IMG/VR virus record: IMGVR_UViG_2645727901_000019
DNA from: a virus
Lineage: Duplodnaviria > Heunggongvirae > Uroviricota > Caudoviricetes
Length of the DNA stretch: 5,635 bases
Reading direction: 5' to 3' (one strand)
Shown piece after piece: positions 2,307 through 3,904 of the stretch. Under the pieces are notes generated by a model. It worked only from the letters and a program-made list of their open reading frames with translations. It ran no database searches and was not told where the DNA came from. Numbering within the stretch: position 1 is the stretch's first letter; every line of letters starts with the position of its first letter. A program made the position numbers and the translations under genes.

Positions 2307-2822
2307 ATGGCGTTAACACACCACGAACTCTGTCAGATTGCGTACAAGTTCCTTAAGCGCAACGGGTTCAAGGTTTGCTTTCATGACCGCTTTGTTGCTG
2401 TAACCAGTACCGGAGAACAGCCAGATGCTATGGGATTCAGAAATTCAGCATCATGCCTGATAGAGGCGAAGTGTTCTCGTGCTGACTTGTTGGCAGATAG
2501 AAAAAAGCGTTTCCGTAAAAATCCCTCACTTGGCATGGGCGACTGGCGATTCTTTATTAGTGAGCCGGAAATTATTTCAGTTGAGGATTTACCTCCCGGC
2601 TGGGGATTACTTCACGTTGTTAACGGAAGAGTACGGAAAGTACATGGATGGCCCAGGGGTAATTGCTGTTGGGGTAATCCTGACGATAAGCCATTTACTG
2701 GGAATAAGCAGGTTGAATGCGATTACATGTTATCTGCATTAAGGCGCATGGAGTTGAGAGGGCACCTTAATGAAATATATGACGGTGTGATTGTTAATAA
2801 GAAAGAAGGAAACGCGGCATGA
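2307..2822 (+). CDS. Putative PD-(D/E)xK-fold nuclease (171 aa; Hjc/VRR-NUC-like N-terminal core plus Cys/Trp-rich C-terminal region)
   Basis: ATG 2307 lies 1 nt after the upstream stop, with AAGGAG (2295-2300) upstream. Residues 5-60 show helix(E7)-PD(39-40)-x12-EAK(53-55): HELCQIAYKFLKRNGF...QPDAMGF...LIEAKCSRADL. C-terminal part includes GWPRGNCCWGNPDD. An upstream in-frame TTG at 2274 lacks an SD. Confidence 0.7.
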   Translation: MALTHHELCQIAYKFLKRNGFKVCFHDRFVAVTSTGEQPDAMGFRNSASCLIEAKCSRADLLADRKKRFRKNPSLGMGDWRFFISEPEIISVEDLPPGWGLLHVVNGRVRKVHGWPRGNCCWGNPDDKPFTGNKQVECDYMLSALRRMELRGHLNEIYDGVIVNKKEGNAA

Positions 2823-3577
2823 TCACTATTACCAAAGGGCGACTGCTGACAATCAAGCAGTGGCGCGAAACATACGGACCGGGTAGCAACGTTGTACTGC
2901 CAGCAGAAGAAGCGGAAGAACTGGCACGAATTGCACTGGTATCGCTGGAAGCAGAGCCGGTGGCAAAGATTATAGCTCATTACCCATTAGGAGTTGACGT
3001 AGGCAAACAAAAGTTCGTACAGGCCATTGGAGAGCTTCCTGACTTTGGCGGATATCTATTTGCCGCCCCGCCAGCGCCGGTAGTGCCGGAAGAAGCAACT
3101 CCGGAAAACGTAGAAATGCTCTCTGGCTATGTTTCCACGTACAAATTAACCGATAGCGAGCGCGATATTGCTGCCGAAATATGGAACGCCTGCCGCACCG
3201 CCATGCTTCAGTCCGGAAACTTTCGGGAAAGCAAGAATTCGTCAACCAATAATTTTCGGGAAATCCCGGAAGCGTCAACCAGCTCTCCGGTAACTCCGGC
3301 TCTTCTGCCTGGTGGTTTCACCATTGAGGAGGCGAAGGAATTACATGAAGACCTGGTACGCAGCCACATAAGCAAGGCCTTAAGTGGCGAAAAGATGAAA
3401 AAGAAAGATCGCGATGCTGATTTGCGCTGGATTCATGGCGTTATAGTTCAGGCAGCGTGGTTTGTAAAAGCATCACTGGAGCAGAATGCACTATCGGGCA
3501 ACTCTCCGGTAACTCCGGATGGTTGGATAAGCTGTAGTGAGCGAATGCCGGACGACAGGCAGGAGGTGAATCAATGA
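2819..3577 (+). CDS. Hypothetical prophage protein (252 aa) with an internal repeat-rich linker; ends just after a PDGWISCSERMPDD motif
   Basis: ATG 2819 overlaps the upstream TGA (ATGA); GAAGGAAA SD. Contains a 33-bp tandem repeat (FRESKNSSTNN / FREIPEASTSS) and a 17-bp perfect direct repeat in frame 219 bp apart. The C-terminal motif resembles, from memory, the start of a DUF551-type prophage domain. Stop TGA 3575-3577. Confidence 0.7.
   Translation: MITITKGRLLTIKQWRETYGPGSNVVLPAEEAEELARIALVSLEAEPVAKIIAHYPLGVDVGKQKFVQAIGELPDFGGYLFAAPPAPVVPEEATPENVEMLSGYVSTYKLTDSERDIAAEIWNACRTAMLQSGNFRESKNSSTNNFREIPEASTSSPVTPALLPGGFTIEEAKELHEDLVRSHISKALSGEKMKKKDRDADLRWIHGVIVQAAWFVKASLEQNALSGNSPVTPDGWISCSERMPDDRQEVNQ
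3221..3286 (+). repeat. Imperfect 33-bp tandem repeat (2 units) inside the 2819-3577 CDS
   Basis: TTTCGGGAAA recurs at 3221 and 3254 and CGTCAACCA at 3240 and 3273, both with period 33 bp (in frame, 11 codons). Confidence 0.6.
3283..3299 (+). repeat. 17-bp perfect direct repeat, copy 1 (CTCTCCGGTAACTCCGG)
   Basis: Identical 17-mer recurs at 3502-3518, 219 bp (73 codons) downstream in the same frame of the same CDS; flanking bases differ on both sides. Confidence 0.9.
3502..3518 (+). repeat. 17-bp perfect direct repeat, copy 2 (CTCTCCGGTAACTCCGG)
   Basis: See copy 1. Encodes SPVTP in both places (SSPVTPALLPGG vs NSPVTPDGW). Confidence 0.9.
3561..3568 (+). promoter_or_regulatory. Strong Shine-Dalgarno AGGAGGTG for the 27-codon peptide gene
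   Basis: AGGAGGTG lies 5 nt upstream of ATG 3574, inside the last codons of the preceding CDS. Confidence 0.55.
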
Positions 3578-3657
3578 GCTGGCCTGATGCAATCGTAACT
3601 CTGGGGGTGGTATTCGCAGCAGCGTTTGTTGTGTTCTCGATTTGTCGATGGGGATAA
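3574..3657 (+). CDS. Small hydrophobic single-helix peptide (27 aa), not in the supplied ORF track
   Basis: ATG 3574 overlaps the upstream TGA (ATGA); AGGAGGTG (3561-3568) lies 5 nt upstream. Translation MSWPDAIVTLGVVFAAAFVVFSICRWG, stop TAA 3655-3657. Fills the gap between two coupled genes exactly. Confidence 0.45.
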   Translation: MSWPDAIVTLGVVFAAAFVVFSICRWG

Positions 3658-3661
3658 CCAC

Positions 3662-3904
3662 ATGTTCGCTTTGATTCAACGCGGTCAGATATACACGGAC
3701 AGAGCTGGATACCCCGTGGTGATTACTCGCATCACTGAGCACTCAGTGTTCTTTCGACGGATGGACGGACGATCCGGGCGGGTACGCATTGGTGAGTTAA
3801 ACTGCCTGTTCGAACATATTGACCACCAGGAGTACCGCAAAATTCTCGCGGACACTGAGCAGGAAAAGCACCTGAAAAAATTACGAGCCATAAAAAGGAA
3901 GTAA
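3662..3904 (+). CDS. Small hypothetical prophage protein (80 aa)
   Basis: ATG 3662 lies 4 nt after the peptide stop; GGGGA upstream. Translation MFALIQRGQIYTDRAGYPVVITRITEHSVFFRRMDGRSGRVRIGELNCLFEHIDHQEYRK... Possibly a DUF4222-like small prophage protein (recollection only). ORF-track start 3626 is TTG without an SD. Confidence 0.6.
   Translation: MFALIQRGQIYTDRAGYPVVITRITEHSVFFRRMDGRSGRVRIGELNCLFEHIDHQEYRKILADTEQEKHLKKLRAIKRK

Follow-up and report, generated by a model that had tools for sequence, protein, structure and literature searches.

In-frame direct repeats, an optional 73-codon cassette and a missing DUF551 core in a mosaic gene of lambdoid prophages

Why does a short prophage gene carry the same 17 nucleotides twice, in frame, and why does its protein stop just where a recognizable domain begins? 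The question is raised by a 252-amino-acid (aa) open reading frame (ORF) in the viral record IMGVR_UViG_2645727901_000019, a stretch of 5,635 nucleotides that was analysed as a whole and is called the window here. A preliminary description of this DNA had pointed to a perfect 17-mer pair exactly 219 bp apart, to a 33-bp in-frame tandem repeat in the same gene, and to a protein end resembling the opening of a conserved C-terminal domain; it proposed that recombination between the 17-mers would give rise to alleles differing by 73 codons. Examining complete Escherichia coli genomes, IMG/VR viral contigs and protein cluster representatives, we find that the 73-codon polymorphism exists, that the 17-mer recurs between many different modules of a protein family, and that the gene differs from a full-length allele by an exact in-frame gap in the DUF551 domain. 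We consider it likely that the gene is a mosaic allele in which linkers bracket a 73-codon cassette, and from which the DUF551 core was lost separately, in frame, between short repeats.

The repeats, the linker and the 73-codon cassette

The features of the gene on which this part of the argument depends are the following.
2819-3577, + strand: the mosaic accessory gene, 252 aa (from the ORF list)
3221-3286, + strand: two in-frame 33-bp units, FRESKNSSTNN (3221-3253) and FREIPEASTSS (3254-3286), 24/31 nt identical
3283-3299, + strand: linker 17-mer copy 1, read as SSPVTP, the left boundary of the optional cassette (exact match; homology tracts end at 3290-3299 in 36 comparisons)
3300-3501, + strand: unique part of the 73-codon cassette, a portable, predicted helical domain of about 60 aa (202 bp, in 491/5,426 genomes)
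3502-3518, + strand: linker 17-mer copy 2, read as NSPVTP, the right boundary of the cassette and left edge of the DUF551 joint (exact match; tracts start at 3490-3509 in 172 comparisons)

The window has exactly two copies of the 17-mer, CTCTCCGGTAACTCCGG, both on the + strand, and the repeat reaches 20 nt with one mismatch (3280-3299 and 3499-3518) at a spacing of 73 x 3 nucleotides; no further copy is present in the window at up to 2 mismatches. Two copies were reached in none of 200 dinucleotide shuffles, and the chance expectation of a perfect 17-mer pair (5635^2/2 x 4^-17, or 9.2e-4 per window) agrees with the once per thousand windows estimated at the outset. The 33-bp repeat (3218-3248 matched to 3251-3281) is the best near-tandem match of the whole window, and none of 100 first-order Markov simulations produced one as good (best 22). 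On the evidence of these shuffles and simulations, a chance origin was rejected for both repeats.

Because the 33-bp repeat consists of just two, diverged copies, Tandem Repeats Finder reported nothing at 3217-3290. The unit is present in two copies in all 146 homologous instances, with no variation in copy number, and a variable-number tandem repeat locus of the contingency type was rejected on both counts; the repeat is an old duplication inside a Ser/Thr/Asn-rich linker, in a region predicted as coil at low confidence. An explanation of the repeats by RNA, promoters or terminators was also rejected, as Rfam gave no match at E <= 1 on either strand and promoter-like and terminator-like sites stood at shuffle (background) level in consensus scans. 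Each 17-mer holds a small hairpin (CCGG-TAACT-CCGG, at 3286-3299 and 3505-3519), of -3.9 kcal/mol in copy 1 and, with a longer stem, of -7.3 kcal/mol (z = -3.6) in copy 2; the hairpin is probably incidental, and too weak to build on.

The length polymorphism was sought with a synthetic deletion junction of 77 nt, made of a single 17-mer with 30 nt of flank on either side, at an E-value limit beyond the reach of a 47-nt partial match. This cassette-less junction was found as one contiguous piece, at 90-98.7% identity, in 466 of 5,426 complete E. coli genomes, and the 202 bp specific to the cassette in 491 of them, so that the two allelic states are about equally common. The cassette-less alleles of IAI39 (237 aa) and FORC_069 (242 aa), which read ...FRKIPEASTSSPVTPDGWISCSERMP and ...NFRKIPEASTSSPVTPDGWISCSERMP..., miss exactly this interval, and FORC_069 holds a cassette-plus and a cassette-minus gene in different prophages. 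IMG/VR contigs include alleles of 243 aa and of 170 aa, a difference of exactly 73 codons, with 3-5 mismatches in 437 nt of left flank and 1-5 in 800 nt of right flank (about 99% identity); the junction of the 170-aa allele, CAG-17mer-ATGG, runs from the flank left of copy 1 into the flank right of copy 2 and keeps one 17-mer. A second pair, of 194 and 121 aa and again 73 codons apart, lies behind an unrelated N-terminus (MINRTKLEH...). The locus therefore shows an in-frame indel polymorphism bounded by a direct repeat, in which both alleles are natural, the short allele has a single repeat copy and the flanks are nearly identical. The comparison of homologues that had been proposed has thus borne out the expected alleles: the family varies in length by 73 codons, and the 17-mer at the boundary is conserved. 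No cassette-less junction of the FRE type was found in GenBank phage records. Two proteins, P0001 (395 aa) and P0022 (375 aa), contain internal duplications that cover the cassette or the module preceding it, at junctions other than the 17-mer; both are single-contig clusters, and may be rare real duplications or assembly artefacts.

The 17-mer itself is not confined to this gene. An IMG/VR scan for the exact sequence returned at least 120 stretches, and every one of the matches listed reads it as (N/S)SPVTP. At least 25 unrelated contexts stand to its left and at least nine contexts to its right (among them GWISCSER, where DUF551 starts; a GWVMVPK domain; LLPGGFTI of the cassette; GHIQFSVS; and DVRRMDWL), in mixed combinations. 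From these many left-right combinations we conclude that the 17-mer pair is two copies of a family-wide inter-module linker and is not private to the 252-aa gene; no paper mentioning an (N/S)SPVTP linker was found. A codon-degenerate scan for PVTPDGWI gave identical codons in 166 of 184 matches. When 90 distinct full-length alleles are compared pairwise at the DNA level, the 48-nt joint averages 93% identity, the 60 nt to its left 64%, the DUF551 core 59% and the tail 77%. The value for the joint is partly circular, since the search pattern had already set its first 23 nt.

Homology breakpoints have a corresponding distribution. When the gene was compared by BLAST with 239 viral loci, selected (as were those behind the context counts) by linker or junction pattern, 172 tracts started at 3490-3509, 36 ended at 3290-3299 and 129 ended at 3540-3559 (near 3550), and smaller clusters near 2955, 3065 and 3185 correspond to other linker positions. 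The match begins at about 3500 in 45 of the 71 loci with the DUF551-deletion allele described below. The smaller clusters (2945-2960, 3062-3095 and 3180-3200) coincide with the linker-like motifs ...ASLEAEP, AAPPAPVVPEE and AMLQSGN, which recur across the family and mark module boundaries.

Between the two linkers, the cassette interval (68 aa) matches no Pfam family. A HMMER scan of 1.84 billion cluster representatives recovered it in 84 proteins at E <= 0.001, from 36 to 585 aa long, where it lies at either terminus or in the interior, or makes up the entire protein (71-89 aa). Its conserved motif is PGGF(T/S)xEEAKELHxxLVxSHISKALSGE(K/R)M...DLxWI...AAWFV, and two helices are predicted in it, at low confidence, in an AlphaFold model of the full-length homologue P0004. 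Judged by sequence, the cassette is a small portable domain of unassigned function, and this putative helical domain of about 60 aa (PGGF...SHISKALSGEKM...AAWFV) is one for which there is no family model.

This portability, which extends over many architectures and to stand-alone proteins, also speaks for a different order of events. The long allele could be the derived one, a cassette with a linker at each end having been inserted by recombination into an ancestral gene of the form left module-linker-DUF551; the 17-mer pair would then be the footprint of an insertion, not a substrate awaiting deletion. Most 17-mer contexts do join a left module straight to DUF551, and some cassettes have another left boundary (for example, ...EAEAPNLPGGF in proteins of 134 and 186 aa). 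However, insertion is compatible with later deletion, the two processes yielding an identical allele pair, and because the 243-aa and 170-aa alleles resemble each other as closely in one flank as in the other, the direction of change is unreadable from that pair. We regard insertion as a tenable possibility, if not quite a probable one.

The missing DUF551 core

The second part of the question concerns the end of the protein, where three further features are needed.
3521-3568, + strand: DUF551 remnant, GWISCSERMPDDRQEV, profile positions 1-16 of 68 (Pfam, compared with full-length P0004)
3546-3556, + strand: junction of the in-frame 159-bp deletion of the DUF551 core, TGCCGGACGAC (comparison with L004, the locus encoding P0004)
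3557-3577, + strand: the normal C-terminal tail, (R)QEVNQ, and the stop codon (same tail in full-length DUF551 genes at this locus)

The 252-aa protein passes the Pfam gathering threshold for DUF551 (PF04448; 24.0 bits against a cut-off of 22) with residues 235-250 only, the whole score coming from 16 residues. Homologues that are 97-100% identical to it over residues 1-244 run on into a full DUF551 and are 291-313 aa long. In P0004 (305 aa) residues 235-298 correspond to profile positions 1-65, and in the IAI39 allele residues 169-234 correspond to positions 1-68. The suspicion that the protein ends on the opening of a longer conserved domain was therefore correct, and what the protein lacks is the core of that domain (profile positions about 17-65), with four beta strands and a C-terminal HWMPLP motif.

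Locus L004 shares the neighbourhood of the gene (DUF4222, 44-aa ORF, integrase, mlrA), and the window is equivalent to L004 minus exactly 159 bp, or 53 codons. The gene has one other mismatch, before the gap; beyond the gap the aligned sequences are identical. In L004 the missing segment is bounded by TTCCGGACGAT and TGCCGGACGAC, and an 8-bp repeat, CCGGACGA, flanks it in the full-length allele. All four beta strands of the P0004 model (residues 250-295) lie inside the missing 53 codons; a Foldseek search against PDB gave nothing significant (faint matches to Tudor/SH3-like barrels, E near 1), and a PDB sequence search gave no matches. The tail QEVNQ ends the full-length DUF551 genes of NCTC9112, EC100 and L004 as well. 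Because the gap is an exact in-frame one of 159 bp and the family's normal tail and stop codon are retained, the short C-terminus appears to be the product of an internal deletion and not of a premature stop. The preliminary description was accordingly right that the domain is missing, and wrong that the end is truncated; of its two suggestions, loss or displacement, loss is upheld, and displacement was rejected, since tblastn of the missing core against the window returned only noise.

The deletion junction is widespread, being present in 158 complete E. coli genomes and 71 IMG/VR contigs, and among GenBank phage records only in PhiR5_1. The deleted end is joined to at least 12 upstream architectures, encoding 134 to 431 aa, in which the ORF is open. 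It belongs to a conserved block of the stub, a small ORF, DUF4222 and the 44-aa ORF, which extends as far as about 4040 or further and in many cases takes in xis and int, while the modules upstream are exchanged. Since PhiR5_1 was deposited as a complete phage genome (host E. coli C), its possession of the deletion allele suggests that the DUF551 core is dispensable for phage growth. The cores that do exist are very diverse, with at least 36 different starts among the 90 distinct alleles. Because this diverse core (about 59% identity) lies between a conserved joint (93%) and tail (77%), it itself behaves like an exchangeable, possibly fast-evolving cassette.

Proposed mechanism and its rivals

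We hypothesize that the 252-aa ORF belongs, as one allele among others, to a highly mosaic accessory family of lambdoid prophages, whose short modules would be chained by Pro/Ser/Thr-rich linkers. The two 17-mers would be copies of the family's standard linker, (N/S)SPVTP, bracketing an optional cassette for a small portable helical domain; since the DNA of this linker is almost the same wherever it occurs between otherwise unrelated modules, the linker would offer a short in-frame patch of identity for joining, inserting and removing modules. The likely routes would be replication slippage, single-strand annealing, or phage Red/RecT-type recombination, and RecA-independent slippage or annealing between short repeats, as in the deletion hotspots of lacI, is at least as likely as homologous exchange. 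The DUF551 beta domain would have been excised by the 159-bp in-frame deletion between short CCGGACGA repeats, leaving the first 12 or so DUF551 residues, the tail, the stop codon and the translation signals of a 27-aa ORF downstream. Many sets of N-terminal modules would have been recombined onto the DUF551-less end, and once both alleles existed, exchange would also have been possible through the long flanking homology. We infer the repeat-mediated route from the alleles, as we do the direction of each event and any functional consequence.

Several observations weigh against this account. The minimal length for efficient pairing is 31-34 bp for RecA and 23-27 bp for Red-beta (PMC3945230), and because 17-20 nt is below both minima, recombination within the linker alone should be rare. 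The reciprocal duplication junction, with the 17-mer between the left flank of copy 2 and the right flank of copy 1, had no match in the complete E. coli genomes, and deletion and insertion of the cassette give the same allele pair. Because the loci were fetched by linker or junction pattern, the counts of breakpoints and contexts favour the linker; the variety of left-right combinations is independent of that bias. The AlphaFold model of P0004 is confident for DUF551 only and poor elsewhere (mean pLDDT 43). The sole full-length allele with the tail LPDDRQEVNQ is the one metagenome scaffold, L004; no 3' junction of the L004 type was found in IMG/VR, and the complete E. coli genomes do not contain the L004-type allele either: their best match reaches 93.9% identity and ends in LPEPPQEVNQ.

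L004 could therefore be a secondary recombinant and not the parent. The deletion allele would then descend from an unsampled ancestor with a DUF551 of the MPDDRQ type, in which a deletion would have run to the shared CAG (Gln) codon in the tail, and a core would have been re-inserted later to give L004. That DDxQ is a common start of the DUF551 core (MPDDKQ, MPDDGQ, MPDDAQ) and that no other full-length allele has the DDRQ tail agree with such a history. However, scans recovered no MPDDRQ-plus-core allele (one unrelated viral match, and chance matches in unrelated taxa among genome contigs), and two microhomology events are needed in place of the one of the simpler account. We think this history rather doubtful.

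Further from the evidence, the identity of the linker might reflect only a need for the SPVTP peptide together with narrow codon choice, the joints having arisen through illegitimate recombination at random, with selection then keeping the intact proteins and the 17-mer having no part in the mechanism. Phage mosaicism has two standard models, of which this is one (PMC3233612); 17 nt is under the quoted pairing lengths, and the variants NYPVTP and NSTVTP occur, so the peptide tolerates change. Those same tolerated changes speak against a strong constraint on the peptide, and four-fold degenerate positions are unchanged in 166 of the 184 matches; moreover, breakpoints fall exactly at the 17-mer in many independent combinations, and the cassette-less junction has exactly one copy of it. 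The peptide-constraint explanation is improbable on this evidence. Least credible of all, and largely refuted, is a decaying pseudogene or a sequencing or assembly error, to which the missing core and an almost unsampled full-length parent might point, but against which stand an in-frame change with a normal stop codon and thus none of the marks of a pseudogene (frameshift, internal stop, lost normal stop), an identical junction in 158 complete genomes, 71 viral contigs and one sequenced phage, and an ORF open in at least 12 upstream architectures.

Returning to the mosaic allele with linker-bracketed modules, a stronger version would hold that the linker block (about 17-55 nt, (N/S)SPVTP-DGWISCSERMP) is maintained as an in-frame recombination joint and is not a passive relic. 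We judge this unlikely. If true, the joint would let co-resident lambdoid prophages swap N-terminal modules, the PGGF helical cassette and diverse DUF551 cores. The accessory proteins would in effect have a domain-shuffling system built in, and the allele that lacks DUF551 would be an 'emptied' slot.

Genomic setting and known systems

The window is the early-left (exo-xis, or ea) arm of a lambdoid prophage, with the gene order three Ead/Ea22-like ORFs, 171-aa ORF, 252-aa ORF, 27-aa ORF, DUF4222 protein, 44-aa ORF, excisionase and tyrosine integrase. The interval 2819-3700 is 100% identical in E. coli O55:H7 RM12579, phage PhiR5_1 and about a dozen other complete genomes, and at least 80% of it is present in 61 genomes. 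In RM12579 the identical gene stands beside DUF4222, xis and int, and the integrase abuts mlrA (the prophage being inserted at mlrA). The 252-aa protein (WP_000628775.1) is named 'phage protein' or 'DUF551 domain-containing protein' in RefSeq and 'Ea22' in the annotation of PhiR5_1, and its ORF matches PHROG 60, 660 and 5117, all without assigned function. Because it has no match to Ead_Ea22 (PF13935) at E <= 1, the ORF is by sequence no member of the Ea22 family; two ORFs upstream of it match PF13935, at 4e-31 and 7e-11.

The three consecutive Ead/Ea22-like ORFs on the + strand, within 1135-2305, are at 1135-1320 (a 61-aa fragment), 1317-1823 and 1820-2305. The first and third share near-identical N-termini, MS(K/E)I(D/N)YQALRE, and the three look like tandem paralogues, the first apparently truncated, and like another mosaic remnant. 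The 171-aa ORF (2307-2822, + strand) is open in the window and matches PHROG 9263 and 631 and no Pfam family; at its position in RM12579 and FORC_069, RefSeq annotates only a short frameshifted pseudogene. ORFs on the minus strand had no family matches. A gene identical to the 252-aa gene over about 730 nt, and carrying a full DUF551, lies in the nin region of other prophages (L005-L007, 3001-3909), between the replication genes and RusA/Q, so that the same gene body occurs in two different genome regions.

One further feature overlaps the end of the gene.
3574-3657, + strand: 27-aa hydrophobic ORF, MSWPDAIVTLGVVFAAAFVVFSICRWG (read from the sequence)

The stop codon of the 252-aa gene and the ATG of this ORF overlap (ATGA), and the ribosome-binding site of the ORF, GGAGG (3562-3566), lies inside the tail of that gene, 8 nt before the ATG. 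The identical ORF follows the DUF551-deletion junction in 65 of 71 viral loci, and a diverged homologue, MIWPEAFAITGVAMAIAFLVYVICRCG, follows the DUF551 genes in the nin region of L005 and L006. The ORF matches no Pfam or PHROG family. This conserved, membrane-like ORF, which still lacks a family model, may encode a small membrane peptide with translational coupling to DUF551 genes.

As an example of phage accessory genes built from shuffled parts the gene is ordinary, and because the biological role of its protein is unassigned, its wider impact is modest. It provides a clean, countable case for the question of whether module exchange is guided by short conserved sequences or is random and then selected, and as PhiR5_1 carries the allele, the frequency of deletion or exchange can be measured directly. 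There is also a consequence for annotation: since the allele keeps profile positions 1-16 only and lacks all four predicted strands, RefSeq 'DUF551 domain-containing' proteins of this type hold a remnant and not the domain.

Four known systems invite comparison. The closest are the DUF551 (PF04448) proteins of enterobacterial prophages, such as YfdS of CPS-53 and the C-terminal domain of the Ea22 variant V2 of Stx phages, which are of the same family and neighbourhood; unlike full DUF551 proteins, the 252-aa allele has only the start of the profile and none of the four predicted beta strands. Lambda Ea22 (Ead_Ea22, PF13935; pro-lysogenic, exo-xis region) shares with our gene the early-left region, where the gene is directly downstream of the three Ead/Ea22-like ORFs, as well as a mosaic block structure and, in PhiR5_1, a name; it differs in that the 252-aa ORF has no PF13935 match. 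The mosaic block structure of ea22-region genes and the portability of the DUF551 domain have been described (PMC10834534), and the 252-aa gene is a new, well-documented instance of this known mosaicism.

A third likeness is with spontaneous deletions in the E. coli lacI gene. Albertini et al. (1982) reportedly found such deletions between short direct repeats, with 14 of 17 bases matching at the main hotspot. Our gene likewise has a perfect 17-nt direct repeat 219 bp apart, alleles with one copy, and an 8-bp repeat at the DUF551 deletion; it differs in that the events here are known from standing alleles, and in that insertion of a cassette fits the same pattern.

The fourth comparison is with the conserved boundary (or linker) sequences of lambdoid mosaicism and with the relaxed recombination of Red-beta and RecT, where there is likewise a short conserved island of DNA at mosaic breakpoints; whether such sequences guide recombination or joints arise illegitimately is an old debate (PMC3233612, PMC2327257, PMC3945230). 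Here, by contrast, the island lies inside a reading frame, at the linkers between domains and not between genes, and its 17-55 nt are at or below the quoted pairing minimum.

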